The notes beneath the pieces were generated by a model that saw only the letters and a program-made list of their open reading frames with translations, made no database searches and was not told the DNA's origin. 64,000 nt of DNA from Obrimoposthia wandeli. Its lineage: Eukaryota. Position 1 is the stretch's first letter. Every line of letters begins with the position of its first letter. Both the position numbers and the translations under genes were made by a program. Where the stretch lies: contig CDROCS010001161.1 in NCBI GenBank assembly GCA_977020255.1, positions 1-64,000 on the forward strand, read 5' to 3'. Below, piece by piece: positions 3,001-59,942 of the stretch.

Positions 3001-3408
3001 ATACTTGAATATAAAATAGAAATTAGAGAAAGAATAAAACTAACATTCGAAAAAGCTAAACTATTTGTAAAAAACATACAAGAAAATTACAAAGAATATT
3101 ATGATAGAAGAACTAAGCCATCAAATATAAAAAGCGGAAGTAAAGTGATGATTCACAATCCACAAATTAATGTAGGATTGTCTCACAAATTATCAAAACC
3201 ATACAAAGGACCATATACAGTCATTAGTACCAACGGAACCAACATAACAACTAAACTAGATAATGAACCAAAATCAAAAGAAATAAGAGCACATATAAAC
3301 AGATGTCGAGAAATACCTGAGGAGAATACAAAAGTAAAAAGTCACAAATATAACTTAAGATCAACTAATGATAATACAGTTCTACAAATGTTGACAATAA
3401 AAAACTAA
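1..3408 (+). pseudogene. pol: Ty3/Gypsy pol (protease, RT, RNase H, integrase) with several frameshifts and stops
   Basis: IDTGSS at 1; [39 protein letters not shown] and YIDD at ~845-1210; TDASGYALGAVL and IAYASR at ~1630-1720; zinc finger H..GH/CEIC; integrase core 2368-2853 (MDVMG, TDKG, GLVERFN); GPY motif in 2932-3408. Confidence 0.97.
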
Positions 3409-5476: not shown

Positions 5477-6645
5477 ATGGATAACAATCACCTGGATATG
5501 ACTCCAGACCAGCTCACTCGGTCAGATCAAACAAAAAGCACAGCAAAAATAGAAAGAGGAAAAACGGAAAATATGCCAGAAAGGTGGTATTTAGCAAAAT
5601 TCCTGTATCAAAAGATGCGTCAATTTAGCATTGCATACTTTAGAAACAACGGAGGAAGAAAAATGTTTTCAAATCAAACATTTCTTCCTAATAAGTTAAA
5701 AATTACCACAGAAGAAAGAACAAGCGCACTTATTTTTTCCAATGAAAAAAGACCAACCATATGGCTCTCAGCGAAATATTCCCCGATATTAATTGTGAAA
5801 AAATAGATATTCACGTGGCACTAGGAGTGGCCCATTTAAAAACCAAATCAGATAAGACATTAAACTTTCTGATGATAGGAAATCACACCTACACCTTACA
5901 AGCAGCTCAATTAGAAAATTAATATAGCATAAAAATAGGAAGAGGACCAAATCTATTATTTATAGAAAAAATAAGAAAAGCAGAAGAACCTCAACAAATA
6001 GCCCTTTTCGAATTAAAAAACGCACAGAAACCAGCAATTTTATTCCTCGATTGCGAAATGGTGATATCAGTAGATAAACAGCCAGTTTTAGCAAGTGTTT
6101 CTATTATAAATTACATAGGTAACGTAATTATAGATACACTGTGCATAACTAGAGATAGAGTAAGAAATTACGTTACTAGAATAACTGGACTGTCAGATAG
6201 AAAGTTACAAGGATGTAGAGATGCTGATGAAGTAATTGAGGAAGTAAAAAACATTGTGTATGGTAACATCATCGTAGGTGTGGGACTAACAAACGATTTA
6301 AAAGCTTTACGCCTACAGAAATGAATGTTATTCAACATTGTTGATTTAGGAATATCTAAAAGCATAAAATCAGAACTAAATCACAATCACCCAAATATTG
6401 GACTCGCCAACATGGTGCGGAAATACTTAAATATAGAAACACAAAAAGGAGTCCACACTAGTATGGAAGATGCAAATCACACCCGAAAGATTTTCATAAT
6501 AAAGGAGGAAATGTTGAATAGAGAGTTTGATTTGACCGAGGTGATGAATCCACCATCTAGCGAGAACAACCCCAGTTCATCGTTCTCACATAAGACCGGA
6601 AACTCGGAGTCCGGTACACAAAACTCCCCGATTTTGTTGGATTAA
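5477..6645 (+). pseudogene. Cargo ORF ending in a REX4/ISG20-family DEDDh 3'-5' exonuclease (frameshift ~5760-5800, stops at 5920 and 6322)
   Basis: ExoI FLDCEMV (6043-6063), NYVTRITGL, ExoII IVGVGLTNDLKAL, ExoIII HTSMEDA; ORFs 6058-6324 and 6325-6645 are in one frame, separated by a single TGA. Confidence 0.88.
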
Positions 6646-7064
6646 GGTAGTATTATTATTATTTTTATTCTGTTTTCATTCTTGTCTAAATTTTTAACGA
6701 TATTTAACCAGACATGATTGTGATTAGTAAAACATTGATCAGTTATAAGTTATATAACTTACAAATAATAACATATAACATACAAACAACACTAGTTAAC
6801 AATAGAAACAAGACAAAATAGCTTTACTAATAATTAAGAAAAAAATTATAATTCTGAGGACAGAGACTTTTATGACCCTGAGGATTGTTGGGAAAATATT
6901 AAAGCTATTTATTTAAAAAAATATATAAATATATATATAAAATTTTTAAAAAGTAAAAAAAAAAGAATTAATTAATTAAAGAATTAATTAAGAACTTTCC
7001 TTAATTAGGGAAAAGTTCTATTTTGAAAATATGCACTTTGGCATTTTAGTCTCTAGATAAATCA

Positions 7065-7116
7065 ATCTCCGACGGGAAAAAAGCCCGTTTCGCCCTGCCG
7101 GGCTCATCAGGGAGAT
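7065..7116 (-). ncRNA. Type I hammerhead ribozyme, canonical core, GUC cleavage site
   Basis: Minus strand reads AUCUCC-CUGAUGA-GCCC(GGCA)GGGC-GAA-ACGGG(CUUUUUU)CCCGU-C-GGAGAU. All core nucleotides and all three stems are perfect. Confidence 0.95.
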
Positions 7117-7535
7117 GGCTTGTTATCTCTGACTTTGCGGTGGATTCCGCGAAGCCAGAGATAACAATAATAAAGCCAGGGAAGAGGGAAAGATTCCCCT
7201 TTCATGTGCCGACGAATATCGTCGACAAGTGATGTTAGTGTGCGCAAGTGCACAATTCAACACACACACACTCACTCAACTTCTTTACTCACTCACAACT
7301 CACTCAACATTAACACTCACATACTCACTTACATACTCATCTCACTACTCACTCACTATTATCTGTGTGCGGTTTTTATTCCTGCAGTCAGATTGGAGGA
7401 TTTCGTCTCTGGGAAGAACTGCATAATTATCAATACTGCTGCAGTAATGATATAAATAGCAGCAATGGCCATTCAAAAATATATGGTTATTTTACTACAA
7501 ATTGGATCATAAAAATCATATGTTATTTTACTACA

Positions 7536-7827
7536 AATTGGATAATTGATATCAACCTATTATTTGTTGCCAGAAATTGGATAATTGATATCAACCTATT
7601 ATTTGTTGCCAGAGTTGGATAATTGATATCAACCTATTATTTGTTGCCAGAGTTGGATAATTGATATCAACCTATTATTTATTGCCAGAAAATTGGATAA
7701 TTGATATCAACCTATTATTTGTTGCCAGAAACTGGATAATTGATATCAACCTATTATTTATTGCCAGAGTTGGATAATTGATATCAACCTATAAATTATT
7801 GCCAAAATTGGATAATTGTTATTAACC
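7536..7827. repeat. Tandem array, 38-39 bp unit, about 7.5 copies, inside LTR A1
   Basis: Unit TTGGATAATTGATATCAACCTATTATTTGTTGCCAGAG. Confidence 0.95.
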
Positions 7828-8000
7828 AAAAAATATTTATTTGCTGAATATATTATTAAAGAAAACAATTTTTTTATTTTTCTCTCATTTATAACATGTG
7901 TGTGAATTCATAGAACTTTATTAAAGATAAACGTAGTTGTGATTAGTTTACCAAATTAGAATTGATCATGTTGTGTCATATATACGATACTTTTTAGATT

Positions 8001-8964
8001 TGTAAGGAGTAGGATTTTAATATTTATATAAATAATTAATTATTTTATAAGAAAATAAAACCTTGAAAGCTAGAATATTGATTTCCATTAAATACCAAAT
8101 TGAATATTGATTTTCTTTAAATACCATTTTGAATATTGATTTCCGTTAAATATCGTTTCAAGATTGATTCTCACTTAATACCAATTTGAATATTGATTTC
8201 TGTTAAACATAATTTTGAAGATTGAATTCCATTAAATACTAGTTTGAATATTGATTTCAATTAAATATCTTTTGAATATTGATTTCCGTTAAATATCGTT
8301 TCAAGATTGATTCTCACTTAATACCAATTTGAATATTGATTTCTGTTAAACATAATTTTGAAGATTGATTTCCATTAAATACCAATTTGAATATTGATTT
8401 CCGTAAACATCATTTTGAAGATAGATTTTCATTAAATACCAATTGAATATTGATTTTCATTCAATATCATTTTGAAGTTTGATACCCATTAAATTTAATT
8501 TTAAATAGGGAAGTACGGTAATTTTTCCTACGTCCAAAGTTTGGACCCTAAATGTTAGAGCAAATTTCTCAGAAATTAGAAGCGTGCAAATTATTAGATA
8601 CGTTTAAAATCGATACGTTAAGACATCCCCATTTGTGTGACGTTTAGTGCAGTAGTTAGGACTAATTGTTGTAATTTTTAGGAACCTAGTTAGAGTGTAT
8701 TGAACAAATCCCTACAACTGGGCAAGTACCAACCCACCATACACTACACCACAATAAGGGAAATTGTCCAGTACCCCATGCACACAACTCTTTACACATA
8801 TCCACAACACAGATTGTAAACAAAACCTTCAGATTATAAATTGAGACAGATAAGATTAAAATCTAAATAGGCCACGAACAACTGCAAGCCCTATTGCTAT
8901 AGAACTCACGTTGGGGGCCTCCATACGAGGATCTATTTAAGAGTTTCAAGTAGAAACCCCAACA
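8001..8964 (+). mobile_element. Solo LTR family B copy 1 (internally shorter)
   Basis: TGT...CCCCAACA flanked by TSD GATT (7997-8000 and 8965-8968); its 3' part is the reverse complement of the starts of the 12868 and 34057 copies. Strand is relative only. Confidence 0.88.
8073..8490. repeat. About 29-bp tandem array with a ~143-bp higher-order repeat
   Basis: Unit GAATATTGATTTCCATTAAATACCAATTT; the variant block starting at 8131 recurs at 8274. Confidence 0.9.
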
Positions 8965-12867: not shown

Positions 12868-14923
12868 TGTTGGGGTTTCTATATGAAACTGTTTTTCTAA
12901 TATAGAACCTCTGAATGGAGGGCCCCAATGTGAGTTCTATAGAAGCAGGACTTGTAGATGTTTGTGGCCTACTTAATGTTATGCTTGCTTGTCTCTAAGT
13001 TTTTCTGAAGGTTTGTTGTTTCGAAATTTAAAGGGTCTATAACAACGCTGTCTGGTTGTAGGAAATCGTTTATTACTAAGCACACTAAATTAACACGTCT
13101 AAGTACGTTCTAAAAATTACAATACAATTCCTAAGACTTTCGCAAAGTCTCTACACAAGTGGGGATGATCCACGTATCGAATTTAGTTTAGGCTTGGTTG
13201 GTCACTAGAGTCTTTACTCTAAAAATGTGACAAGGTTAAAGTAATATGTTTTTGGAGAGCTGGTTGCTCTAAAATTAGGGAATGAGTTTAGAGAGCTGGT
13301 GCTCTGAAAATAGGTGTTTAGTTTGTTTATTTTTAATTTAGTTTCAAATTTCTTGTTACAACACTTGGTAACAAACTGTGGACAATTTTCTATATCAATT
13401 GATTTGGAATTTATATAATTTTATTTCAAAAACGATTCAAAATGATTCGGAGTTGCTTCGAAATTGGGTTAGGGTTGTATAATTTTATCGAATAAATTAT
13501 TCAAAAATGATTATATAATTTTATTGCAAAATTACCCAAAAAGGATTATATAATTTTATCGCAAAATTATTCAAAAAGGATTCGACAATGATTTTAAATA
13601 TACTTGGAATTATATAATTTTATCTCAAAATTACTCAAAAATGATTATATAATTTTATTGCAAAATTATTCAAAAATGATTATATAATTTTATCTCAAAT
13701 TATTCCAAAATGATTATATAATTTTATTGCAAAATTACCCAAACAGGATTATATAATTTTATCTCAAATTCTTCCAAAATTCTTCTATAATTTTATTCAC
13801 GCTCCCACTCTTAACTTACCGTGATCTCTTTTCGAGAAGCCTCTCTTCTAGATCACACGAGTAGTCCGGCGATTCGCTTTGGTTGCTCCTTCCAGACATG
13901 GTTATGTTCCGTGCGTCTGCAGTCCTCTCTTTCCTTAGCTCCCGTACGGCTCGCTCCGAGATCGATCTCCTAGGCTCGGTCGACGGTTCCTTCCTTGGGT
14001 TGTTCTGTCTTTCGGATTGCGCTCCGTTTAAGGTGGCGGTTGATTTGATTACCGTGATCCTGCACGTCTGGGTTTTTAAAGTGTTCCTTGTCGGCTGCGC
14101 GCTTCTCTTACCTTTATCGAAGCTGCTTCCTCGATCCGCTCTCGATTTCCGAGATATTCTTCTTCCGATTTATTTCCACTTTCTGATCTGCAGGATTATC
14201 CAACTTTGGGATGCAACTCTTCTTTTTTGGCTCCTCTTAAAAACTCGATTTATTCCGACTTTCTATCTTTCTGCGCTGCTCGAATTTGATCTACGAGCTT
14301 CTAATTTCTGACGTGAAAATGACTGCAATAATCAAGTAAGTGTTTTGATTTATATAGTTTACCTTCTTCGATAGGCACTTTCCTTTTTCGGTTCTGTCAA
14401 TAAAGGCACTTTCCTTTTTTCGGTTCTGTAAATAAAGTTTTATTTACTTGCACTTAAAATAAGTGTACTCACTCTGGTGTCTGGGATCCGGCTGGACGGT
14501 TCGTAGCGTCCTCTGGTAGCGTCACTAAGTGGCCTAATGGATTTTGTTCAGGCCGGCTGTTTGGCTCCCAATGGCGTCGTACTACTTCTTGACTAATGGA
14601 AAATCTATTCCTCCTCAACTTGATTTACTACACTCCTGCTAATTGAGTTTAGCTTCTGGACTTTCTATTTAATTAATTACTTTTTTCTTATTAATTAGTA
14701 TTCTAACTCTTTTTTGGGGCCTTTTGGTTAAGTTTAAAATCCCTTATATACAGCACACGCTTACACATGACCTTCATGGTCCTAATATTTTCCCACTGAT
14801 TTTATTTTTATAATTTTAATTTTATAATTAATTTTATCTTAATTATAACCTTGCTTTCAAGGATTTTTATTTTAGTATAAAAATTATTAATTATTTTAAT
14901 TTAATCAAAACCAAATCTTAACA
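12868..14923 (-). mobile_element. Solo LTR family B copy 2 (2056 bp)
   Basis: TGTTGGGG...TTAACA with TSD AAAT (12864-12867 and 14924-14927); both ends homologous to 34057-36123. Confidence 0.9.
13400..13800. repeat. About 35-bp tandem array inside LTR B2
   Basis: Unit approximately GATTATATAATTTTATTGCAAAATTACCCAAAAAT; boundaries approximate. Confidence 0.85.
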
Positions 14924-15470
14924 AAATGATTAAACAAAGTCCTGTAATATAAGCCTATGCAGTTCATGCATTCATTATAAATATTGATTTAAAATATCAG
15001 AAGTCTCGAGACCCTGTTCGTAGTACAACCGTTCAGGTAGATAGAATGTATATGACCAATCTTATAAAATCACAGTTTGATATATATTTCTAAATGAAAT
15101 TAAGAGATCAGAATACATTATTTCATCCTAATACTGTATACAATTTGGACAACAGGTAAACTTCTGACATATTATGTCCACCGATTTTTCAATATTAGAT
15201 ATGTGTTATTATGTAATTTAGTTGTTTAATTTATCGTTATTAAAAGTTAAGCACCATGTGTGATTCTATATGTTTCTTAAATTTAAATTCTAAATATGTA
15301 AGTATAAAAATTTAATATCTACCGTACTACAGTATTAGTTTCGATACGGTGTCTTTTGCACATAATGAATTGATTTTACACAAATCTTTAAAATTAAAAG
15401 AAATTGTTGGTGTTGGGCCAGATAAATAATTATAATATCATGAAAAATTTATGGAAACAAAAGAAAAGCC

Positions 15471-17473: not shown

Positions 17474-20400
17474 TCAGGCCCAAACGTCCTCCATGTAAAC
17501 CTTGTTGACACGCAGCCCTGTCACAAAAGCCTCCGCCATGTGCTCAGTGACCAGTGTTTCATTGTGACCTTGCACCACCCGACACATGGCCTGCTGGACG
17601 TCCTTGACCATGGAACCAGCGTCCCCGCACACAAACACGCGGGCACCAGCATCAACCAATAGTGGGGCCAGTTCAGTGGCATGGTGACGCACACAGTCTT
17701 GTACGTAGTGGCAATCCACAGGTACGCACAGACTACTGCTGCTACCATTTTTGCTTGTGTCGCGGGAGAAGCAAACACAAAGATGCGCCAACACACCGCG
17801 ACTCAGAAATCCCTCCAACTGCTCCCGGAACAGGAAGTCACGGGCTTCGTGGCGACAGCCGTGAAAGAGCCAAACTGAACCGATATCCATCCCAGAGCTC
17901 TAAAATATTATTGGACATGCTACTTACATTTATCAATAATATACGATTTTTCAAAAGTTTTCTACAGCAAATTCTTTTAAACCTAGTAACTACGAGAAAG
18001 ACAATAATTTTATTTACTACTTTTAGAAGCAAACATGGTTTATAAGAATTAAGATAGAGATGGAAATTTAATTTTTTAAATCTTAACATCCACATAAGAT
18101 TTAATTGAGGACATTTTGAAACGTCTTGAAATGCTTTTACCGTGTTTTTTAACCGACACAGAGAATCTTTGCACTTTGTCAATTATAATTGTCTGTCACT
18201 CAAACCAGATATGTAATCCCACGAGTTGTGGGTATTGTTTTGTGACACATTTCAAGTGGGTTGGAAAACTCTTAAAGAGAGTTTATTGAAAATTGTCTAT
18301 TATTTGTCACTCAACTTTCAATTAAAAGTCCGCATTATTAGAATAACGAGACAGAAGTGTAAAGTACCATTTCTAGCTCATTGGTTGCCACTGTCCTTGA
18401 CTAACAAACTGTAGCTAACGGATGGATTAGGTGATGAGAGCCATTGATAAAGAAATAACTTGCATACTATCTTGATTTCTGTCAATTTAACAGTCGGGGA
18501 GTACACTTATAATCCTAGACAATTAATGTGAGGCGCGCCTTTGTAATAAGCGCACCCTGATTTCCAGTCAACTAAAAGCAGAAAATCTGCATATTCTCGT
18601 CCAGAACAACAAAATTTAAAATTTGCTGCGTTTGTGCGGTTGTTGACTCACCCTCAGTCGTTCAAAGTGTTGTAAGAACCCGATGAATGGAGCAACTCCA
18701 GTACCCGGACCAATCAGAATATGCGGCTTGTTCGTGTGCTCCGTAGAAATACAGAACCCGTTCAAGTTCTTCCGCATGTACATCGGGATCCGGATAACTG
18801 GCTCCACCTCGAGATCACGACTAGCAACACTGCAATTGATCAGTGCATGATAAATATGTGGTCAATAAAATTATCTTGAACCACTTTAAAAATCTATAAC
18901 AAATCAAGCACGATAAAAAACCAAAATTATTAAAAGTATCGAATATTACCATTTTATTACAATAACGTATTGAAATCTTCGCTAATTCCTTTATAAATGA
19001 CGACTTGAGATTAAACTTGACATATTAATTTACCATGACTGTTTGTAAATAAACTAGGGAAATCAAAAAATATCCAGATACAATACCTTTTTTATTTTCA
19101 ATCGGAATTTTGGAGTAAGGTCGTCATTTGACATAAAAAGACGTTAGTGATAGTGTCAATTAAAGTCAATTACAAACCCTGATTGATGAGGGTGACTGGA
19201 AAGACAAACACACAATACTAGATCAGAAGAAGCGGACTGCAAAACTTACTTCTCCAGCCATGTGGTGCAGACCCCAGTGAGAGGTCTTCGTCGGAATTGT
19301 GCAACTGGTGCAATGTCGACCTTACTAAATGCGAATGACAGCGAGTCAAGGTCGCAGAGAGAGTAGGAACGCGGCTTTAGTCGAGGAAGAACCTCAAGCA
19401 GTCGCGAAAGAGGCAGCTGGCAATCTGGAAACCAGTTCAGCAGATCCAGAACAGCCATGCTCGGTTCTCGCATGCATCTGAGAGTCAGGAGCATTAATCT
19501 GTAATCAGTTATGTCAAAGGTGACAAATTTAACTTTGCAGTAGTTTTCTAACAAAGTAACGTATCTATATTTTTACGGCAACTTTAATATTTTAATTGTT
19601 ATCGAGTAAAATATTTTTTAATACATTTATTAGTTGGTCAAAATACAAATACAGCTCCAAGACAGTTTACAAGAACAAGCTAGCTGATGATAAAACTGAA
19701 TGTGAAAGCAATCTAAGAAGCAGCACCAGCTTTGTTCGATCGTCGAGCTGCTTCGCCAGGGCTCTTCCTGAAATAAAAAGTCAATGATGGAGCGGAGATA
19801 GAGAATTGGCCGAATGAGTGACTTGCAACAAAATGCACAACATTTTCTGACGAAGAATCAAAAAACTACCTGAAAGATGTGCAGAATTCATTTACTACAA
19901 CAAAAACGCTGGAAAATTGTCTAACGAGTACCTTTTTGTTCACAGTAAAAGGGATTTGAAAGAAACGCTCTCAGACAAATGTGCACACTCCTGTCAAATG
20001 AGAGCACTGAGATAATTACGAGTGTGGAATGCCACATTTTATCCGCTTGAAAGTTTAACAAAAGTAGTTTCACCTGGTGTAAAGGCTCTGTCCTTCTTTG
20101 GCACACAGCTGCATCAGCCTCTGTCGAGCGGCAGACCCGGCGACTGCGTGCTCTGCCATGATGCGCAGTCCTGGCTTGGTTAGTGGAGCACGCAGGTCCA
20201 CCAGCCACTGCAGAACTGACCGCACAGACACCGGTCTCGGTGAGGTCACATCAAGATGTCCGGGCAGCTTGGGGGCACGACGACCTGGCGGGGCCGGCAA
20301 CAGTCGCAGCTCCATGGGACAGTCACGCTGTGCCTCAGGAACCCCCAATCGCACGAGGATGTCGTCCACCTCCCGCTGTGAGTTGCGAGGCAAGACCGAG

Positions 20401-23400
20401 ATGGAGTCGCCGGCATTCCATTTCCACTTGGGCTCTTCCTCCGCGACCACCGTCACTCTGTGTGACCCAAATGAGTAATCAGTAGTCATCCCTTCAAACA
20501 TCACCAGCTACTAGTTGCATTTGAATTCATAAAATATGCTCAGTAAAATTTGAAAGGCACAAAAAGCGACTGTGGTCGACTTGAACAGACACTCACAAAT
20601 GAACTGGCTTGACTGCGAACTTCTGTGTGATGCGCCTGACTGCTTGAAGACGGCCAATCGTCAGCGGAGTCTGGGCAGCAGGTAGCGCAGCAGCAACCTC
20701 AATTGGCAGACTGCAGTTGACCTTATCGCTGGTGGCTTCCTCGTACACGATGTCCAGGAAGGCAGACGACAGTGGAGGTACGGTGAGAGACATGTTTGCG
20801 AGCTCAGTCGCCAATTCGTCTCCCAGAAGGGATACAGTGGAACTTACAGCTGGCGGCGGGATCGGTACACAGATCTCGCTGAGACGGAGTTGGACCAGCG
20901 AAGAAACCAATTCGCATTGGTTAGAGCCTTGCTCCGATTTGAGGGAGACAAGACTCAGATAAAGACCTTCCAACCATGGCTCTACGACCATCTCCATTCC
21001 GACAGCATCATCGGCCCATCTGCAGATTAGCAAACTGACGTTGTGAAAAAATAAAACTATGCTGATTCAGAATTAGAAGAATAATCATCTTGTTTCACTT
21101 ATCAAACGTTTTGGATGATAAACCAATGATCTGAAATAATACATGCTAATAAAAGATTACAGACGGACAATGTTATGGTAACAGTAATAAAAATAGTAAA
21201 CTAAATTTACGGGTGAGCATTGCAAATTTGTTGAATTGCATTTGTGTCCATATATGGGTATCAAACATCTAGTTTATAAAAAAAATAACACTAAAGAGTC
21301 AACAAACAATTAATAAGTGTTTACAAAATATTCTCAAAAGTAGCAGTCAAGAGCAATGCTAAAATATTAACTCTCAAAAACACTTTCAGAATTATTAATC
21401 AATCAAATTATTAAATCTGTACATAAAACATTGTTTAAAAGCTACGTTGTTAAGGTTTCATATGTTGATATATAAAGAAAAAAAAATTTATATAAATGAA
21501 GATACCATTATGTTAAATAAGTTGTAAAGAGGTATAAGCTTTCAAATATTACTTAGATTGAAATAAAAATCAATAAATACTGTTTCTTTTTCGATATTTG
21601 GGACCTTCACTTTTGAAAAATTATTGAAATTCATGTGAAAAATATTTTAATAATTTCCGAAATAATATAATTTGAAATAAGTGGCGAAAGAAATAAAAAC
21701 AATCTTAATTATTAAAATGTATTAAATTTTTTTTGTAGGAATATGTAAAATTATCTAAATTTAAATTATTTTCTTCAAACGATGAATCACAGTATTCTTG
21801 ATTTTAAATAAAATTATAAATCTAGAATCCCCGGAAAGTTATCTCTGTTTTTAATATAAAATGCATAACTACAGACTGCAGATCAAAATAAAAATGATAA
21901 GGGTATTATCGAACAAATGAAATAATCAAAAATTCTGAGATTTATCATTTAATTATCAAATAGCTGTAGATGATTATGAAGGAAATAATAAGATTACACA
22001 AATTCACATATTCTAAAAATTAAAAGGTAATTTAATTCATTGTAATAATCAAGTTTTTTTTACTTCTTTACCACCTTTTTTTAAATTAAAGTATTTGAAA
22101 ATATATTTCTGAAATTAGTAAATTATTTTGTAATCAAAAATTCATTTTCAAGTTAGCAAAATTTTAAAATATTTGAAAAATTATTTTTACCTTCGATAAC
22201 TTCTCTTGAAAATTTCTAGTCACATTACATAATTAAAAGTACACGATGTTCTGAAGTGTATTAACCGATGATAAGATAACAATCCATTGCACGAAACATG
22301 AAAACGTTACCAGTTTATATTAAAATTTTAAATAAAATAATGTTTGAAAAGAATTTTCCTTTTAAGTATGTGTTAGCATTTGTAGAAAAATAATGTATAA
22401 TTACTGCATTACTTAAATTTAGTTAACTAAAGTCCAATACGCAACATCAATCTTTTTTTTGTGAAAAATAAATATTCAAACATGACAAAAAATATAATAA
22501 TGTTTAAAGATTATTTATGAGATGTGAAATAAATTTTAATTTACAAAATAATACTACACCCTATCAAAGTCGATATTACCGATAGCAATATGTTTAGTGC
22601 CGTTGACTCGTAAGTTTGTAATGTTTAGATGTTTTTTTAATAATTTTAGAACTAATTTGGATTATTATACATGAATAAGACAAGAAAAGGTGATTATTTT
22701 ATTAAAATTATGTTAAAATGAACTCAGGTACTAAAAATGTCATCTTTGTCCAAACATTGAATTGTATGGTTATATCCGAGAAATTGAGCCATATATATCA
22801 GTGTCGTGTACGTATTTTTAACCCGCCTCTCCATTAACAAATTTACCGCCGTTTTTGGATTTTGATACTCCTGTGAAGCCCCTGCTGATATTATTAGTTT
22901 GCTTATATAGTTTGCAAACAATTGCCCTGATTTATAAAAAGAAGATGCCAGTCTCATGCTTCAATCAAGGCCTCTTTGAGCTCATAATATTCTTAATTAT
23001 GAAGAAAACTACATTTCCTATGATTTTCTCTGAAAAACGACTAGCATCGGAGTTACGGTCAGTTATAAAGTTTTTTTTAAATATAATATTATAAAACATA
23101 ATTTCCGAATCTTCATAAAACATTTAATAGTTCTTCTACCATCCTTTCATCGTTAGGGGTATATTTTCTATGTATTTTAATCAAAAAAGCGGCACTAATG
23201 ACTTTTTACGGCACTATTCAATTTGTTAACACACCCTATAGTAAAAAATCACTAACAATTTTTTTTCCTGTCCTGTAGGTGTGTGACTGCATGCATTCTA
23301 TAGTAAGTAATTATTCAGTTTTTACGGCAACATTCTTTTTGGATAGATGCTGTTTTTTTATCGGTAAGTTTTACTATGTATTATTATTAATCTTATCTTA

Positions 23401-24038
23401 TACTATAGAATTATATGCCGACTCTTTATAACGGCACTAATCAGTTGGATTAGGTGTATATCAAATTTATGTAAGGTTTCCAAAATTAACTGAATCAAAT
23501 GTACTGTTATAAAAATAGGATCCAGCATTATTCTTAACTTTTACGAACAATAATATAACTAGAGTTAATGTAGAATTTAGTCTTTTAATTTTTGCTTCTC
23601 AATACCTACAAATAGTTTTTTTATAGTGATATAAATATAATATAACAAATATAACACAACGGTAACTCACGCTGAAGGATAAAATCTCTTAGCACCCAAA
23701 CGTGCCAAATTAGTATCAATTAGTTTACCACATCGACAAAAGTTAGAGTAATTTGTGTCACCGAGTCCAAGTACAGTGTAATTCAAATGCGATAAAGCAG
23801 TATCTGACAACTTTAAAAGTCTTAAAAATCGAGAAGCATTCTCTGGAGCATCCCCATCACCAGTTGTGGAACAAATTATCACAACAGTTTTTATAGCATA
23901 CAGATCATAACTCTTTTCAAGTTCGTCTAACTCGAATAAACGAATATTCAACAGAGTGCTCATATTGTTAAACACTGTTTCAGCCATACATTTAGCTTGT
24001 CCAGTTTGTGAGCCATATAAAATACAACTCATTGACAT
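17474..24038 (-). CDS. MTRR: Methionine synthase reductase, 6 exons: 24038-23671, 21019-20597, 20457-20074, 19477-19250, 18829-18652, 17899-17474
   Basis: Flavodoxin motifs YGSQTGQAK, STTGDGDAP, LGLGD; MTRR-type ADDAVGMEMVVEPW; FAD motif PRSYS; IGPGTGVAPFIGF; LFHGCR, VFVCGD and terminal YMEDVWA. GT-AG sites chosen by hand join all exons in frame. Confidence 0.93.
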
Positions 24039-24173
24039 AAAACTTTAAAATAAAAGTGTCAATTTTTTTTAAATTCAGTCAAAGAAACTCTGTACTTGAA
24101 TTTTTACAGTAAAAACAATTAGTCTAAATTAAAATCACATGGTTAAATACATTATTTCCAAATACATATAAAA

Positions 24174-24560
24174 ATATCTTTATAAAAAAGAATATTTTAA
24201 ATATCAAATGCTCAAAAACACCAGTGCTTGACTAGCCCATTCTAATAAAATTATTTTCTTCTGATATGATAGAAAAGATGAGGAGATATTATATTTCAAC
24301 GACATTCGTACCCTTAATTTTTCCAAAAATTAAATATATTTTTTAACATTTTTTCATATAGATCTCAAAATATCTTTTATATATATCTTTATAAATTAGC
24401 ACATTTTAAATATAAAATGCTCAGAAACGCCAGTTCTTTACTAGCCCATTCTAATAAAATTATTTTCATTTGATATAGCAGAAAACATAAATAGATATTA
24501 TATTCCAAAAGTGTTCGTAACCTTAATTTGACCAAAACTTAAATATATTTTCATATTTTT
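24174..24560. repeat. Diverged ~209-bp tandem duplication just upstream of the MTRR start codon
   Basis: CTAGCCCATTCTAATAAAATTATTTTC occurs at 24232 and 24441 with similar flanks. Confidence 0.8.
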
Positions 24561-26230
24561 CTAAAAATTTTAATAAATATCAATTTTTTAAATTCTTTGA
24601 ATTTTGTTGCAAAATTATTCAATTTTTTGATAAGAAATTTAAATTTTATAAGTTTTATATATGTCTTCATTTCCGTATTAGGTTGAAATGCCTAAAAAAA
24701 CAAATGTTTCGGAAAAATAAATTTTCGATTTAAGAAAATTTACTGAAGAAGATACTAAAAAAGGAAACCGCGACTCCTTTACTGTTTGGAGGAAAACAGC
24801 AAAACTTCTCAGTTATAACAGAATATCTGCCCTTGAATAACAGAAAATCAGTTTATGAAATCTATAGGCGAAAGTATAAGAACTGTAAGTATTTGTATAA
24901 TATTGGAAATTCGTTTCATAAAAATAATATTGATCAGATTTTATCATATATTTAGTTACTCATATTATTTTAGCTGACACTGTTTCTTGATAAAACACTG
25001 AAAAACTGCCCCACCACTATCCAATTTAGCGCCACTGATGCAGTCTAAAATGACCCAGTTAAATATATTTAGCATTTTATTACTAAAGTGAATGGTGTTT
25101 AAAAAAATCCAATAAATTAACGTTTCGTGGACTTTACATGATGTTATGTTCTAATTTTTTTATTTTCTAAAAATTATTAATGTTTTCATGATAGATATGT
25201 CTTCTTAAAAATAATATATTTCGATGAAAATGATGAAAATACTCATGAATTTGAATATTTTTATGATAAAATGTGTAAAAGAAATGATTAAATTGAAAAT
25301 TATTTTGCATAAAATATGTAAGTAAATCTTCGTCGAAAAGCAGTATTTTATTTTAGTTTCATATCTTATGAATAGTAAAACACAATTTATCTTCAGATAT
25401 TCACATACAAAAAACTCTAAATGGAATTACTAATGTAACTTTACCACTTTACATTCAAAATAAAATTTTACATTTTTCGAATTTGACACTTACTAAACTG
25501 TGGTGTTGACCTATATTATATTGTATTTGAAGATTGAAGTAAACTTTTACGATCAACCTTCAATGTTCATTCTTGATTCAGCATGTTGCACAAATAGTCT
25601 AAATCTATTTTTTGTTTATTTCTTTGTTGCTTCTTTATTTAAGAAACAGTTTCTTTGTCGCAATTTAAACGTTCTTTTTCTTTTTGGACATTTCTTTGAA
25701 TAGCAACTTGCTGCTAAACATTCGAGTTCATGACATATACAGCATCATCAAACATTGCCTTTTGGCGGTACCTGCATTTATTTTTTTGCTCTATTCTTTT
25801 TTGATTGTTCTAATCTATTCTTATTATAGTTCCCTTCTTCATCTTAGTTTCTTAATTTCTCTCAAAAGTTGAATATTTTCTCCATCCACAATTTCACGAG
25901 TTTCATTAATATCCTTATCAGTTACAAGTTTCCTATTATATCAGCTGAAAAACATCATAAATTCCTGATTGCAAGTTTGAATACATCAGATCCTTTGTGT
26001 TGAATATGTTGTTATATAACTGAGGTTTTCATTGGTTTTATATTTGACACGTTACATTCAAGATACATGCAGTCAATACATCAGCATAAGAGAAACCCAG
26101 GCTGTCATATTTATAATTAAATTATCACGTTTAATCATCCTAACAATAAATACTTTTTAAAGATAATAAGGCTTTCGAAATATATGCGTTAAAATAGGAT
26201 CACTTAATAAACTTATCGAAATGAAAAGTA

Positions 26231-26356
26231 AATATTATTTTTAACGTTTTGTTTTTGTTACTTCTTTCATTGTTAATTTTATTTATGACAATTTAATGTC
26301 ATAAATAAAAATAACAATGAAAGAAGCAATAAAAACAAAACGATAAAAATAATATT
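26231..26356. repeat. Near-perfect ~126-bp foldback (hairpin or MITE-like)
   Basis: Two ~60-bp arms (AATATTATTTTT...TTTATGACA and TGTCATAAA...AAAAATAATATT) around a 5-6 nt loop. Confidence 0.85.
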
Positions 26357-26847
26357 ATTATTTTTATTTTTTTTACCTTTATTATTCATCAATACTAAGA
26401 TTTAGTATCATACATTTTTATTATATGTATAAAAAGTGAATTCAACCGTAAATTGATATGTGATATATTTTATTTTGAAAGTTTTCTTCATATAGATGTA
26501 AAAATATATTTGTAACATAAAATAGTTAAAGAAATTATTTAAATTCTAAATACCGAAATCGAAATCGAAATCTTCTCTTTCAAGATTATAGGTTTGATAC
26601 TTACTTTAATTTATTTGTATATGAATGAATATTTTGCTTATACATTTCTAATGAAATTTATTACGACTTGCAGGTCAACTTCACTCTGTACTTAAACTAG
26701 CTAAATGTAAATGCAAATCACCTCAATGGCACAACCAAAGGTCAATATACTAGTAGGTGTGTAAGGGTAGATGTTAAGTTTAATTAATTAAAAGTTAATT
26801 AAAAAGTGCATTCGGTGCACATTTTTAGAATCATTTTATTTTGGTCA

Positions 26848-26899
26848 GTTCCCGAACGGATTATCACCGGTTTCGCCCTGCCGGGCTCATCAGGGGAAC
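26848..26899 (-). ncRNA. Type I hammerhead ribozyme (UUC site, one C-U mismatch in stem III)
   Basis: GUUCCC-CUGAUGA-GCCC(GGCA)GGGC-GAA-ACCGG(UGAUAAU)CCGUU-C-GGGAAC. Confidence 0.9.
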
Positions 26900-27500
26900 G
26901 GCAGGTTATCTCTGACTTCGCGGTAGTTATTTCCGCGAAGCCAGAGATAAAAGTGACAGAAGAATGTCACTGTTTGGGATTCGGTCGCAGATCGACTGGA
27001 CTAATTTGATTCAGTTCGATCAGCGATCGAGACAAATTTAGCCATATTTAGATGGCATTACAGATCGACTGGACTCTTGGTTTATTCCTCTCTGCCCAGT
27101 TCCAATTGCCTGGAGATGCTGCCATTTCTCTCTCTCTCTCTCCCTCTATGCGTGGCTGTGTCGGGATGCATCTCCCCACAACCGCAGCTATCTCCCTCTG
27201 CTGTCAGTCAGTTGCTGCCACTGCTGCGGCTCGGCGTGTGGGTGGATGCAGCGCGGGATTCTCGGATGCGGTCGGTGTTTCGTGTCTCTCGGCAACAACT
27301 ATCCTATCGCAGTTTTGACGGCTAGCGCTGCTATTTCTCTCTGCGGCGAAATTCTCCCTCTTATCTCTTTTTTGAATGCAGAACTATAACTGGGATTGAT
27401 TTAGAAAATCAGCCATAAAAATTAAAATATTTTACAATTTTTGAAAGTCAGACAAAAATATAAAATGATTTGGAAATTTCTTTTTAATTCATTGGAAAAT

Positions 27501-28075
27501 TTATAACAATTATTTGAATTATTATTTGAAGAAGATATTCATTTATAAATTATAACAATTATTTGAAGTTATTATTTGAAGAAGATATTCATTTATAAAT
27601 TATAACAATTATTTGAAGTTATTATTTGAAGAAGATATGCATTTATAAATTATAACAATTATTTGAATTATTATTTGAAGAAGATATTCATTTATAAATT
27701 ATAACAATTATTTGAAGTTATTATTCGAAGAAGATATTCATTTATAAATTATAACAATTATTTGAATTATTATTTGAAGAAGATATTCATTTATAAATTA
27801 TAACAATTATTTGAATTATTATTTGAAGAAGATATTCATTTATAAATTATAACAATTATTTGAAGTTATTATTTGAAGAAGATATTCATTTATAAATTAT
27901 AACAATTATTTGAATTATTATTTGAAGAAGATATTCATTTATAAATTATAACAATTATTTGAATTATTATTTGAAGAAGATATTCATTTATAAATTATAA
28001 CAATTATTTGAATTATTATTTGAAGAAGATATTCGTTTATAAATTATAACAATTATTTGAAGTTATTATTTGAAA
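27501..28075. repeat. 49-50 bp tandem array, about 11.5 copies, inside LTR A2
   Basis: Unit TTATAACAATTATTTGAA(G)TTATTATTTGAAGAAGATATTCATTTATAAA. Confidence 0.95.
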
Positions 28076-30696
28076 TAGATAGTTGTTTATAACTAATATT
28101 AACATAGATAGCAAGAGAGATAACACAGATAAATGTGATAAAAAACATGGATGCTGAGTTGAAATGGTGGGGTCAGTGTTGTCGATTCGTAGCATCGAAA
28201 AAATCTTCATATTTTTCAGCGTGGATCTCGGCTTTTCCAAACAAAGTGCGAGACTTCACTCGACTTTGTTGATATATGTGTATTCAATTCTAATTATGTT
28301 CAATGCTATTTTTTATAAAAATAAATAATAGCTTTGAAAAGAAATATTCAAAAACTTTCATAGAATAAATATAGCGACGTTCGAAAATATATATTATATT
28401 TAATATAAAGTTTAATTTTAAATTGTAATAAAAACTCAAGTAAATGTCAAAAGAATTTTCAGTAAAACATCATGCTATATTAACTATCAGGCATTGTCTA
28501 TAAATCTAATCTTATATTGAATCAAAAAATTATCTTTCAATAATTTTAGAAATGGCTTTTGTAGATGTTTGCATGTAATCAGCAATACACTTTATTATTG
28601 TATGAATATCTGGAAAATGAATCAAAAGGATTTAATATTGTAATGAAATTTATTCAAATTTTAATTTTAAATTTTAAATGTTGGTTGAAATTGGCAAAAA
28701 TAAACATAACAATGAAGTTGTTTTTTTAATAAATATTTGTTTATTGACTTATTATTTGTATCTCAATTTTGTTTTAAAAAAATATTTAAATTATGCAAAT
28801 AATATTTGATTAGCAATAATTACATTTGTATATTAAATATTTTTAAATATTTCAATTTTCTAAAACTTAATTAAATAATATTCATATGTTAAATGATTAT
28901 TTTGTATTAATTGTTATATGATTGACAACACATCAAAATGTTGACAGTGAAAACTCGAGTCCAGAAAAAAGGACAAATGTTTGAATTTGCTCTAGAAATT
29001 TATATATTTAAATATTATTTAAACAAATACATAATAAATTTATAACAAATATATTGTATTTATTTATATTTTGTATTTAGATGGTGACTATCATGATGCG
29101 TTTCTTTAAGGAGTACATTAGTCTCGATGTAAACTATATTAACAAAAGTTAATGTATAACAAACGAAAACACCTGATATGATTTATATTCTACTCAAACG
29201 GGTAATTTCAGATGGAAAATTTATTCACCACATTCATTTGTCAAAAATTCATTCAACAGTAATAAAAATAAATTTGAAAAATTTGAAAAAAATTCAACTG
29301 TTACAGTTTTTATAAAATGTTAATAATTTAATTTGAAGGAAATTTAGCTTTATTATTTTATAAACAATATTTTATCTAATCAATATTTCTACTCAAAACT
29401 GTTATGAATGAGACCAGAAATAAAGAGAAGACTGTTGAAAGAACTATAAAGGTTGTTTGAAGGAAAGAACAATTCTGGAGTGTGGGGCACTCCAATGTAT
29501 GAGGGGTAGTGCGTTACAGACAGCCCCTACGGTTTTCAAAGACCGCCAATACCTCAAAGTCATTGTCAAGTTTAAGAAAAGCCATATATTCAAGACACCT
29601 AACGTGTAGATTCTTTCTCCCACCTTTATCCTTAATATTTGAGACGGATATCTATGAATGAACATACTCAACGCACTGAACATCCATGCCATTGCTGATT
29701 TTGGTGCTTATCTAACCGAACAGCTGAACAAGAATGCTCTCTTTCTGTTCATTACAAACCAGAACTAGTAAGCATGTAAAGTCAAGGAGTCACTCCTCGG
29801 ATATTCAGAGACAATGAAAGAGCATCCTGCAATATTTTGTGATATAATTATATCTTCATAATATATGTAATTTTATTGAGTCTTTACTGCAACTTTGTAT
29901 GTCAGAACGCTCGCTAATCATTTTAAAAAATTTGAAAGCTTAATTTTGATTAAAAAAGTGTTATAAAACTATTTTATGAAACATCAAATTTATCGAATTT
30001 ATATTATCGACCAAATTAATACTAAGTTTGTTACTGTTCACACATTCGAGAAAAAACTAAATTTTTTCGGCCTATTTAGTTCATAAATGTAAAGTCGAAG
30101 AACCCTAGAATAAAGAGTCATAATGCGATTTTCATAATCTATAAATGGTTCGTAATTTTATTTCTTTTCGATGTTTTGACTTTCAAAGGTTTTTAAATTT
30201 TTAATTTTCTACTTTTCAAAGTTATATATCATAACGTAGTTATATATCAATGGTTAAACCTTCAAGAGTCAAAACCTCCTATATTTTCATTTTTATACTT
30301 TTCAAAATTATATATTATAAACCTTCGAGAGTTTGATCTATAGAATCAAAATCTTCAACAAAAAAAATTGTACCTTTAAATGCAATAAAAATGCACTTGT
30401 TTTCAACTTGATCAGACCTTCAAGGGTTGACCTACAAAGGTACAAACTTTCAACAATTTTTTTGTCACTTTTAAAAGTAATCATAATGTACTTGCTTTGA
30501 ACTTGATCAAACGTTTGAAAAATGTTCTACACGGGTAAAAACTGTAAAAAAAAATAACACTTACAAAAAATACATGTATATTACTTTTATAAAATTTCTA
30601 TATACAAAATATAACCTCAGAAATTTTTACTATTTTTTATCAAATTTAAACTACATACAAGTAGAAAGGTGTTTGTAACCCTATCATCACCTTCAT

Positions 30697-30782: not shown

Positions 30783-32335
30783 CTCTCTAAAATATATTTT
30801 TCTTTATTTATCCATTCTATAGTATGGAATAGGGAATTATTTTACTAAATTAGGAAAACTATAAGGAGATATTTCTAAAAACTCAATTTATTGATGAACG
30901 TTTATATAATGAATTCTCTATCAATTTCATTGCTCTCATTGAGTACTAAAGATGTTCAAGGGAAACATCAGATTATGACAAAATTATATAACGAGATGAA
31001 ATCATTGAGCATGTCTCAGGGTGAATTTAGGGGAATGGGAAGGATGTTGTCTTAGTATAATTAGTTTTAAAAATTCGACAAGGTAGAATAAATTACTACA
31101 AAGAATTTTTTAAAAATCTATAACATAGATTAATCAAAAAGATATAATCAAATTTAATTTTCATTCCGATTGCGGTTATTATTTTTCTTAAGCTTATCTA
31201 TAAAAAATTTTATCTTTAGTAATTTTTATTTTCTTCATTGATTATTCATCAAACTTTATCAAGCCTTGTTGAAATTTTCATTACTGTATGCAGTTTATTC
31301 ACATCTTACTTTAGTTTTCTTCACACCTTCTCACATTTTCCAATAACTTTTAGAACTTTTTCCAGTATAGCTCCTAAAATATCAATGCAACAACTTTTCT
31401 CAGTCTTTGTTTTTCAATAAACGTATATTTTATAACTTAAACTTAAAATGCATGCAATGATAGATTAAAACAAAGATTTCGTTAGGTTTTTTAAGTATCA
31501 TCTATATTTTAGCTGACAAATCATTATATGATATAAATATGTATAGACCACTTGCAACTTAAATGTTACTTACGAGCAAGTTATGTGCAATAATTTTTTT
31601 GGTTCTATAAATAAAATATATATTTTAAATCACATTGCAAATTACGTGCAATAAATGTCTTTATTCTTAGTAAATTTATGAAAAAGTAAGTAGTTTTAAA
31701 AAAATTATCACTCATGGCAACAACTTTTAATTCCAAAGAAAACCAGAATTGCATTATTCGACCTTCTCAGGATCTGCACCAGTGACAAGTATTTCAACTG
31801 TTAGGGAACTTCAATGTTTTGTCAATAATGATTCTTCTTGCACTATTTGATGCGTTAAACAATATTAATTAATATTATAATAATGATATTTAAATAAAAG
31901 CTACACATTATATAGCTTTATAAATAAAATTTGTATTAGTTTTGATTAAATATGTGTTAATTAGTTATATCCCTTGAAGCATGTTATCAACTCTCATTGG
32001 TTAGTATTTTTTATAATCTTCTTGCCTTTTTAATTTCTATCAAGAATGGTTACAACTACTTATTTATTTATTTCAGTCATACTACTAATATATTAATCTA
32101 CTTACAGATATTTACTTCATCCAATGATAATAAATAACAAATATATTTAGTAAAGCTACTTTCAAACAATTATCTTCAAAATATATACGAAGTTTTGTAT
32201 GAAATTTCATCAAATATGTCTTATGTCCGAACAATTGATAAAAATAGTTTTAGCTTTTTTATAATTGTAACATAGTTTGAATCGGTTTTGGAATATTTTC
32301 ACTGTTTTATTTAATGTTGTATATATTGATGTATA

Positions 32336-32614
32336 CAGTCAGACCTCTACATAACGAACACTTTTTTTTAACGAACGGTAAACCAAAATTATTATTAATA
32401 ATTGAAAAAAAAAAATTGAAAAGAATTGAAAAACATTTTAGCTTCTAAAAAACCAAAAGACATTACTGACTATTTGGTTAGGAAAAAATAAATACATGTC
32501 TTATTGTAGTTTATTTTGTTTTATAAATAAAAGTTTATTAAATTGTTCGTTCCTTTTTTTAACGAACATGGAATTTTTTGAAAAGTTGGTGTTCGTTATG
32601 TAGAGGTCTGACTG
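32336..32614. mobile_element. Tc1/mariner-superfamily MITE
   Basis: TIR CAGTCAGACCTCTACATAACGAACAC at both ends, flanked by TA. Confidence 0.92.
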
Positions 32615-32987
32615 TATATTGATGTGTTAGTTTCAAAAATAGTGGCCAATAGGAAATGATCTTCAAATATGTTACAAAGGTTGATAGCCAACAGCCAATA
32701 AGAAATTATAAAAATATAATTTAGTAGATAAGTTTAAAATAGTTAAATAAAAACAATATTAAAAAATACTAACAATATTAAAAAATCAAGAAACATATTT
32801 ATTTTATGGAATCAATATTTTAATGTCATTACAATATTGGGAGTATTAATAATTGATTCTTACTTCAATCGTGAATATTTTTAGAACAAATTACAAATAT
32901 TTACTTGCATTATTTGCGATATAGTTTCCTGAATTATCCACAGACATAGTGACAAGAAGTAATCTACACCTGAACAATACACATACA

Positions 32988-34056: not shown

Positions 34057-36123
34057 TGTTGGGGTTTCTATACGAGACTTGTATAGATCCTCTTGTGTGC
34101 GGAGGGCCCCAACGTGAGTTCGAATAGAAGCAGGTCTTAAAGTTGGTCGTGGCCTACTTAGTGTTATGTTTGCCTATCTCTATTTCTTATCTGAAGGTGT
34201 TTGGTTTGACGTCTCTTAATCTGAAGGTTTTAAAACAACGTGTTCTAATGTAGGAAATCGTTTATTGGTAGCACACTAAACTAAAACACAACAATACGTT
34301 TACGTACGTATTTTCTAAAAAGTAGGGTAAAAATTCCTAAGACTTCTGTAAGTCTCTACAAGTGGGGATGAACCACGTATCGATTTTAATTTAGATTTGG
34401 TTGGCGTGAGAGTCGTACTCTAAAACTGTGGGCACTTTGAATTTATAGATTTTACAGAGCTGTTGCTCTAAAATAGGGAATGAGTTTACAGACCTTGTTG
34501 CTTTAAAATGTGGTAATGTAAGTTATTTGGTTTGGTAGAGTAGTTACTCGAAACCTCAATACACTAGGAACAATTTATTAATTTTCTCTTACAAAATTTA
34601 CGTACAAAATCGTTCGAATATCCTTCTACTTTATATTTGTTTCTTTCCAATTAGTTTACCAGTTTGTTTAAAATTCAATATTCTTATTTTAAAAATCAAT
34701 TCCAATCTTTATCTTTATTATCAAAGTCAATATTCTTATTTTAAAATTCAATATTCTTATTTTAAAATTCAATTCCAATCTTTATCTTTATTATCAAATT
34801 CAAGATTCTTATTTTAAAAATTCAATATTCTTATTTTAAAAATCAATTCCAATCTTTATCTTTATTATCAAATTCAAGATTCTTATTTTAAAATTCAAGA
34901 TTCTTATTTTAAAAATCAATTCCAATCTTTATCTTTATTATCAAATTCAAGATTCTTATTTTAAAAATCAATATTCTTATTTTAAAATTAATACCAATCT
35001 TTATCTTTATTATCAAATTCAAGATTCTTATTTTAAAAATCAATTCCACTCTTTATCTTTATTATCAAATTCAAGATTCTTATTTTAAAATTCAAGATTC
35101 TTATTTTAAAAATCAATTCCAATCTTTATCTTTATTATCAAATTCAAGATTCTTATTTTAAACTTCTCACTCTGTCTCTCACCTCGTTCCCGTCTGTCCG
35201 TTCCTTGATTTCGGTCTTACTGAGAGCGGTTGCCTTGCTTGGAGATTTCTGGGTCTGGAGGCGCAGTGTCTCTACGGAAACAATTGTTCCGATCCGATTT
35301 TAGCCTCTCGAACTGCGTTCTCTTGGACTAGACGACTGTCGAATGGGCTCGCTCTGGTTAGATGGAGAGGCCGGTTTTCGGACTATCTGTGTGTGCACGG
35401 TCCTCGGTTTGCAGTGTAGGATCGCTTTTCGTCTCGAGTTCCGATCCGATTTTTCCAAATTAGTTTTCCTCGTTTTTTTTTGGAAACTAGAGTTTGGTTA
35501 ATTTCCTTTTATACTGATCTCTCCCAATTTAGAGCACTTAAACACTTAAAGCAAAGTCCTCACTTCTTGACGGCGGTCTCCTCTCCAACGGCACTAATGG
35601 ACTTGGCGACGATGTTAATTTATTTCTGTCGGCGGGAACTTCTCCTAGGAAATTTAACAATAGAGATCACTTAACTAAGTGCTCTTACTTTCTCGACAAG
35701 ACAGTTGTTTGCGGAGAGCTGCTTCTAATAGATTTCTCGGCACTTCCGGAATAGCTTGTCTGGCGCTAAGTGGCGCTAATATTTACTCAGCAACTTTCTT
35801 TTTTCTTCTCGGCCTTAATGGGTTCTGACTCCGATCTTCTCTCAATGATTTAATAATCTTCTATTAATTGGCTTCTTTCTTCTTACTAACTAACCTTATT
35901 TTCTGGGTTATATCTTTTTTTGGCCCTACTTAATTTTAAATTTTAATATATATACTGCACATCACACACGACCTTCGTGGTCCTCTTAATTTTTACCCTT
36001 AATTTTTGTCCTAATATTTTAACTCAATTTTAAATATTTAATTTTCAACCTTGCTTTCAAGGATTTTTATTTTAGTATAAATTTAACTAATTCTTTTAAT
36101 TTTTTCAATTCCTAAATCTAACA
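34057..36123 (-). mobile_element. Solo LTR family B copy 3 (2067 bp)
   Basis: TGTTGGGG...CTAACA with TSD AATT (34053-34056 and 36124-36127). Confidence 0.9.
34655..35162. repeat. Composite tandem array (~21-bp and ~30-bp units) inside LTR B3
   Basis: Alternating AATTCAA(G/T)ATTCTTATTTTAA and AAATCAATTCCAATCTTTATCTTTATTATC. Confidence 0.9.
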
Positions 36124-36186
36124 AATTAAGCTAACTGTCTATAATATAATGGGTTTTTAAGACATAAATTTTGTAAACCAAAGGAT

Positions 36187-59552: not shown

Positions 59553-59942
59553 CACTCGTTGAAAATTAATAGCAGTCATGCTGCATATTAATCATAATCA
59601 ACCAAAATTGAGTGTAGAATGAGTGGTTGATTAAATAAAATCATCAACTCTACACCCAATTTTGGGATTGTAAGCAGTAAACTGACATCCATATAGTGTG
59701 TATTTACTATAGAAAAAATGCACACTATCACAAAATGTTAATATCAATTATTATTAATATCACAATATAAAATAATTTAAACCGATATAAGGCTGTTCCC
59801 GCCTTACCGATGAGGCTCGGAGAGGCGAAATCGGTATAATGATGCTATTTTATGCAATTGATATTAACATTTTGTGATAGTGTGCATTATTTTTCTATAG
59901 TAAATGCACACTATATGGACTGCTATTAATTTTCAACGAGTG
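59553..59942. mobile_element. Tc1/mariner-type MITE with ~87-bp TIRs (left TIR interrupted by a 112-bp foldback insert)
   Basis: TA-CACTCGTTGAAAATTAATAGCAGTC...GACTGCTATTAATTTTCAACGAGTG-TA; the inner arm 59690-59749 pairs with the inner part of the right TIR (59856-59942). Confidence 0.88.
59781..59835 (+). ncRNA. Type III hammerhead ribozyme (AUA site; U4C and one stem II mismatch)
   Basis: ACCGAU-A-UAAGGC(UGUUCCC)GCCUUA-CCGAUGA-GGCUC(GGA)GAGGC-GAA-AUCGGU; stems I and III are perfect 6-bp helices. Confidence 0.85.

Follow-up and report, generated by a model that had tools for sequence, protein, structure and literature searches.

Antisense hammerhead ribozymes in the LTRs of a Ty3/gypsy GAG-ENV-POL element family of Obrimoposthia wandeli, traced from a probably decaying solo LTR copy

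Does a hammerhead ribozyme motif inside a solo LTR point to selection on its fold, and what could the ribozyme do there? In the window, by which we mean the whole 64,000-nt stretch of DNA analysed, a type I hammerhead lies on the minus strand at 26848-26899, as judged from motif and pattern searches, folding and the comparison of copies. Read from 26899 to 26848, it runs from the first strand of stem I (GUUCCC, 26899-26894) through the core CUGAUGA (26893-26887), stem-loop II (GCCC-GGCA-GGGC, 26886-26875) and GAAA (26874-26871) to stem III (26870-26855) with its loop UGAUAAU, UUC, and the second strand of stem I (GGGAAC, 26853-26848). The CUGANGA / GAAA / NUH core and the three helices are present with stem I open (type I), and cleavage is predicted between 26854 and 26853, ~82 nt from the 5' end of the LTR. 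Two short invariant motifs flank the ribozyme on the same strand: GCC on its 5' side (26900-26902; 169-171 of 175 copies per base), complementary to GGC in loop II, and UGA on its 3' side (26845-26847), invariant in the 175-copy alignment, whose U is position 1.7. The alignment suggests a likely tertiary contact between this U and loop II, and a possible pseudoknot between GCC and the loop II GGC; for the latter no covariation was found, with 7 of 16 double-changed copies restoring the pair and 9 not.

Directly 5' of the ribozyme stands an 18-bp hairpin (26906-26950, minus strand) common to lineages A, B, C, D and H of the element family, and a 146-nt region that includes it has a folding z of -5.48. 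Isolated 58-mers of the window copies do not exceed shuffled sequences in stability (z -0.62 for the solo LTR copy), yet they are predicted to fold into the three expected helices. When the upstream flank is included, the energy model favours a non-hammerhead alternative for both window copies, and Rfam scores only the other one, copy 1 (Hammerhead_3, 27.5 bits, E 0.12, under the gathering score). The case for a hammerhead is comparative rather than energetic. Genome-wide, a relaxed core gave 7,267 matches against 0 for a reversed-pattern control, so the motif is not a chance occurrence; the exact 24-nt core has 1,752 genome matches, often in same-strand pairs ~13 kb apart. Lineage B, which includes the solo LTR, accounts for 61 matches and lineage G for 1,312.

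The sequence-only reading had described the surroundings of the ribozyme as a solo LTR with a TSD, inserted by an integrase-type mechanism, and this description was borne out. The LTR spans 26772-28104 (plus strand being element sense), measures 1333 bp with ends TGTTAA...TTAACA, and has TAGA on both sides (26768-26771 and 28105-28108, plus strand). It interrupts an older host repeat whose left part is 26703-26771 and which continues at 28105-28965. In the corresponding empty sites, 314 paralogous copies of the host repeat, the 4-mer occurs once (TTGA among the 100 listed). At 5/5 loci the alignment of the host repeat continues across the insertion point; a single 4-mer in the empty sites and a repeat continuous across the insertion together establish the TSD as real. 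PBS and PPT, gag-env-pol sisters and the LTR pairs of the family likewise mark a true LTR: both ends were resolved in 7 of the 11 pairs examined (94.7-100% identical), and all 7 have 4-bp TSDs. Tandem units, or a pseudo-LTR without an integrase-type TSD, would characterise a Penelope-type repeat or a non-LTR retrozyme; neither describes this insertion, in agreement with the earlier claim.

Over 1085 bp the solo LTR is 97.5% identical to another solo LTR (L072), and full-length lineage-B sisters contain the same genes, with pol on the plus strand of the LTR. Its 3' part holds a tandem array of 12 x 49 bp (27501-28092, plus strand); L072 has the same kind of array in a shorter form. Among lineage-B LTRs (window 27200-28104 against L053-L078), the first ~440 bp are common and the 3' halves and tandem arrays differ, suggesting modular LTR recombination. 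A TATA-like CTATAA (27384-27389, plus strand), a motif match ~500 nt downstream of the ribozyme, is provisionally read as the sense promoter of the LTR. Such a motif occurs at a similar position, ~440-540 nt beyond the cut site, in lineages A, C, G1 and H, and was not found in the representatives of lineages B (L091) and E.

The neighbourhood also contains exons matching methionine synthase reductase (window 17474-24044, minus strand, and 24042-26771; animal matches ~50%), on the same strand as the ribozyme of the solo LTR. Because an acceptor-like TTTTAAAG precedes the first coding ATG of this gene, there may be a further 5' exon upstream, in which case intron 1 could contain the solo LTR. 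A very high-copy repeat occupies part of an intron of the gene (22400-23420). Related repeats with tandem arrays at 8864-8924, 12915-14925 and 34124-36125 (35-bp, 73-bp and 29-bp units) are possibly another LTR family, and MITE-like inverted-repeat elements lie at 26231-26356, 32332-32618 and 59708-59897 (60-nt, 30-nt and 42-nt arms).

Natural ORF pieces of several copies give the gene order of the family: gag, fusion glycoprotein, protease, RT, RNase H, integrase, a tail and a PF00929 exonuclease, in a coding element of ~14 kb in an animal host. A PBS starting TGGTGAGC lies behind the 5' LTR, and the PPT is short. The PR-RT-RH-IN order and a gypsy-type integrase zinc domain identify Ty3/gypsy. 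The fusogen gene between gag and protease is of a Monjiviricetes, chuvirus-like type (PF24664, E 3e-91) and is also present in a relative (P0012), while the closest solved relatives of the exonuclease are ISG20, SDN1 and ISG20L2. A degraded element at the start of the window belongs to the family of the solo LTR: it comprises a broken pol with RT, RNase H and integrase (1-3408, plus strand), which sets plus as the element sense, a DEDD exonuclease ORF remnant (5923-6324, plus strand; PF00929 is weak here and above the cut-off in 3 sisters) and a 3' LTR (6886-7896, plus strand) after a PPT-like GAGGAT, its 3' end being provisional and based on a motif. By this gene content, the family is an autonomous Ty3/gypsy GAG-ENV-POL element with an additional ISG20/SDN1-like exonuclease ORF, and it fits the arrangement of GAG-ENV-POL errantiviruses with HSV/gB-type ENV. 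Those have been reported from Nematoda, Bryozoa and Platyhelminthes (PMC13524379) and, in the available text of that report, likewise have a Ty3/gypsy pol, multiple copies, a length of ~14.5 kb and, placed between gag and protease, a fusogen of class III type (PF24664); the terms 'ribozyme', 'exonuclease' and 'antisense' do not occur in that text, nor two PBS strings of the family in its supplements.

Several other assignments were rejected. Troyka was ruled out, as its CG..CG ends and 3-bp TSD (PMC12440569, as far as its accessible text describes them) do not apply here. An integrase near a lineage-I LTR (L191, 52% identical) reflects deep conservation and shows no PPT or exonuclease link to the family. 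The 27-kb spacing of some lineage-B pairs, which could have pointed to a giant composite element, results from nested insertions that differ between copies. In one lineage-B copy (L032/L081; G000 C50:284-295 kb) the nested element is what we take, from the appearance of its ORFs, to be Maverick/adintovirus-like. A short locus with two LTRs (L243; G000 C180:87-91 kb), in which the PBS is followed only by exonuclease-like ORFs and the antisense ribozyme is kept, is a non-autonomous derivative. At another locus (L021/L047; G000 C51:57540 and 57709), ribozymes from two different lineages share a strand at a distance of 169 bp, and in the second of them the 3' stem I is broken.

The orientation of the ribozyme, which the sequence-only reading did not state, decides what it can do. 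In 27/27 fetched loci that contain both, some of them pieces of one element, the ribozyme is antisense to the pol of the family. The LTR start lies 60-260 nt from the ribozyme in 171/191 sampled insertions, in 45 after the family PPT, and the remaining 20 have no recognisable end; the distance from the LTR 5' end to the cut site, measurable in 9/12 representatives, is 82-184 nt. Antisense orientation and nearness to the LTR 5' end place the ribozyme in U3 and off the genomic RNA strand, so that the packaged RNA can be neither trimmed nor circularised by it.

Copy 1 (7065-7116, minus strand; lineage 'A', GUC triplet) permits a direct comparison with the solo LTR copy. As had been claimed, stem I is rewritten but paired: copy 1 has AUCUCC/GGAGAU, which amounts to three double changes (A-U/G-C, C-G/U-A and U-A/C-G), and the 5' GCC and 3' UGA are unchanged. 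Stem III too differs by one double change (C-G/G-C). The rest of the LTR had been called barely alignable, which is right in that lineages A and B share only one 84-bp block, so that the fixed motif contrasts with its LTR flanks, but incomplete in that this block (85.7%) includes the 18-bp hairpin beside the ribozyme.

To assess covariation genome-wide, we excluded singletons from 175 insertions and kept the 11 haplotypes that recur (89 copies). Under a lenient rule that allows G-U, double changes occur in all 6 variable helix pairs, compared with 7 of the 123 variable column pairs outside them. In 15 hand-picked natural variants, 97.4% of cells are paired and 26 double-change cells occur against 7.8 when shuffled; six pairs change on both sides, of which stem I contributes four, stem II one and stem III one. 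In a shuffle test of these variants that ignores relatedness, the number of double-change cells was reached in 0/500 shuffles and the 'pairs' value in 35/500. The third pair of stem II was discarded as a covarying pair, having just 3 double changes with no lineage behind them.

The unpaired catalytic bases are conserved. N7 is the only core position seen varying (U 112, C 56, A 5 and G 2 of 175), the GUC triplet is kept at 169, 174 and 170 of 175 for its three positions, loop III is free, and stem-loop II is almost always 12 nt long (13-nt forms: 17 matches). Integrase cores are 89-99% identical among lineages, which implies that the LTR lineages are either young or shuffled by recombination and makes core invariance by itself weak evidence; the copy searches were, in addition, anchored on the ribozyme core. 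Strand information comes from a U-G wobble in stem I that dominates among the 100 listed of the 1,312 lineage-G matches and fits only the antisense strand, because on the sense strand it would be C-A.

Once inserted, copies lose the motif at the neutral rate: in 30 lineage-B loci, changes were counted at 5/179 (2.8%) unanchored core bases and at 63/2110 (3.0%) flank bases. The comparisons support a hammerhead that is kept by selection between replicating lineages. The earlier proposal that this locus shows selection on the fold is therefore upheld at the level of the genome, where 6/6 variable helix pairs covary, and does not extend to the solo LTR copy with its private UUC, since it is replicating lineages on which selection acts. 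The private U, at position 16.2 (26856, minus strand), turns the basal pair of stem III into a C-U mismatch; UUC occurs in 1/61 lineage-B copies, while 59/61 sisters have GUC and one has AUC. Pairing of stem III beside the core (15.2-16.2) is thus absent here and present in 59/61 sisters, and the two basal stem III pairs have predicted probabilities of 0.01 and 0.0, compared with 0.84 and 1.0 in a sister copy. The letter at 26856 may be an assembly error instead of a real change. As a real change, UUC would be one of the neutral changes that follow insertion, and the solo copy is a decaying descendant that, by the folding predictions, is probably impaired by its private mismatch.

Hammerheads in true LTRs and type I hammerheads in animals are each already known. 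According to the accessible parts of the reports, the former are type III motifs in non-autonomous plant retrozymes (PMC4918200, PMC7761336), and the latter are those of Penelope elements, Terminons and non-LTR retrozymes (PMC7229834, PMC6765202, bioRxiv 10.64898/2026.07.22.740005). Plant LTR retrozymes are of Ty3/gypsy type and resemble the present family in having a hammerhead in each LTR, a PBS, a PPT and 4-bp TSDs (PMC4918200, PMC7761336). They are, however, non-autonomous and non-coding, with the type III ribozyme on the PBS-bearing RNA, whereas the element here is a coding animal retrotransposon with a type I ribozyme antisense to PBS and genes; neither the non-coding interior nor the type III motif on the PBS strand that defines an LTR retrozyme is found. 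With Penelope-like elements, Terminons and animal non-LTR retrozymes the family shares the type I fold and thousands of copies per animal genome (PMC7229834, bioRxiv 10.64898/2026.07.22.740005, in the parts accessible), but it differs in its full stem III, its true integrase-inserted LTR and the lack of short tandem units or a pseudo-LTR.

Natural hammerheads are accelerated by a pseudoknot-type loop contact (PMC3088659, available text); UGA and GCC are similarly placed for contact with loop II, a role suggested here by their invariance. The UGA that follows the 6-bp stem I and the GCC that precedes it correspond to the loop (UGAUGCC and variants) that closes stem I in four IMG/VR phage type III hammerheads, which have the same stem-loop II and a different circular permutation; these pattern matches were accordingly set aside as phage type III ribozymes instead of family relatives. 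Bdelloid LTR retrotransposons have a DEDDy exonuclease as ORF3 (PMC5408684), and so are gypsy elements with a comparable additional exonuclease ORF on the 3' side; the exonuclease here is instead ISG20/SDN1-like and accompanied by a fusogen, and the accessible text of that paper does not mention ribozymes. Outside gypsy loci (80 from metagenomes and 10 from IMG/VR) are distant, at 24-40%, with 1 hammerhead-like motif in 92 loci; closer outside relatives of the family reach 45-55%. That single motif (L317:2754-2811, plus strand; type I-like) comes from a metagenome contig with an unrelated gypsy element, where it has sense orientation and coincides with the junction of gag and pol; it may be chance or a recoding structure. 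In the literature covered, which is largely non-subscription, we found no report of a hammerhead within the LTR of an autonomous gypsy element, nor of one on the antisense strand of such an LTR.

What, then, might the ribozyme do? The role we consider likeliest, though with slightly less than even confidence, is self-cleavage of antisense RNA running back through U3, which would reduce silencing of the element. Position, orientation, copy number, covariation and neutral decay after insertion were observed; for the promoter source, fast cutting and the anti-silencing effect we infer the following course. The source of antisense RNA would be either host read-through or the GC-rich U3 promoter ~500 nt away, firing divergently, and the neighbouring hairpin together with the contacts of GCC and UGA with loop II could make cutting fast and co-transcriptional. 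The cut would separate the polymerase from the promoter-proximal antisense RNA and, at the 3' LTR, would leave the RNA continuing into the coding region uncapped with a 5'-OH, so that less dsRNA, piRNA precursor or nascent-RNA-guided silencing might result. Hammerhead-cut mRNAs are degraded in the yeast cytoplasm (PMC3241649, accessible text). A stable 5'-OH product of ribozyme cleavage has also been described as resistant to nuclear Xrn2 (PMC6938672, accessible text), which makes simple termination unlikely and means that the antisense RNA may persist. We count it in favour of the antisense-cutting role that the element carries a gene for the ISG20/SDN1-like exonuclease as well. In the fuller version, an autonomous animal retroelement with an envelope would use the ribozyme as an anti-silencing device, together with a captured exonuclease that degrades small RNAs; in its entirety this strikes us as rather unlikely. 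Four sequencing runs that had been considered as RNA evidence were dropped, since introns are evenly covered and the runs behave as DNA of one sample.

The ribozyme might instead be a passenger, captured from a Penelope element or retrozyme and hitchhiking in U3, with its pairing kept for DNA or sense-RNA structure. A sister GAG-ENV-POL family (pol 44-50% identical; its best 150 matches 99-100% identical to the query) lends this some weight: no hammerhead core was found in 12 stretches of 4/4 elements and no Rfam match in 3 of the 12, so this family thrives without the motif, which is a family-specific trait not needed for amplification in this genome. Neutral decay of the copies and the closeness of the lineages in pol point the same way. 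Hitchhiking nevertheless seems improbable, given that the unpaired catalytic bases are fixed while N7, loop III and flanks turn over, that double changes occur in all three stems and that the polarity of the wobble favours the antisense strand. Elements of the sister family (L204, L365-L376) are ~22 kb long and very high-copy, have a frame of >5,000 aa in some copies and show a RING-like motif ahead of the protease.

Of the readings that give the ribozyme a function, one would have it set the 3' end of a short structured antisense U3 RNA, a decoy or small-RNA precursor, with the upstream product being functional. It agrees with the GC-rich, structured U3 and with the strong hairpins that immediately precede the ribozyme, most of the 12 representatives having a hairpin there; yet the hairpin is found in 162/191 insertions against 113 for shuffles, a weak generality, and the lineages do not have the upstream U3 sequence in common (>5/12 share no informative 9-mer), and we hold this reading unlikely. 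Still less probable to us is a protective role, in which transcripts reading out of the 5' LTR into flanking DNA would be cut and the host or neighbouring copies thereby spared: the site does lie 80-185 nt ahead of the host junction in 5' and solo LTRs, but where an insertion sits in an intron on the opposite strand, cleavage of the host pre-mRNA would come at a cost. Finally, paired ribozymes, one per LTR, could excise an antisense RNA of ~13 kb that circularises, as in a retrozyme of opposite polarity. The motif is present in both LTRs ~13 kb apart, 5'-OH products can be stable (PMC6938672) and plant retrozymes work in this way (PMC4918200), both as described in the accessible text; PBS and PPT, however, are on the opposite strand, so that an antisense circle could not be primed by tRNA, and no RdRP or dedicated antisense ORF was seen in the element copies, which leaves such circles a slim prospect.

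We thus return to the cutting of antisense RNA as the favoured role. The interest lies in the family-level finding, to which the solo LTR copy is a decaying witness. Retroelement ribozymes described so far trim or circularise their own transposition RNA; an antisense ribozyme in an autonomous LTR element cannot act on that RNA, which implies a different job, the control of antisense RNA. If this is true, a catalytic-RNA counter-defence is built into an LTR, with an antisense hammerhead cutting the RNA that is the source of dsRNA or piRNA at the border of U3. One genome offers thousands of copies and several lineages that covary, with decayed copies to serve as internal controls and a sister family that lacks the ribozyme, a setting that makes the in vivo role of genomic hammerheads directly testable, and the same copies amount to thousands of potential RNA cut sites near host genes.
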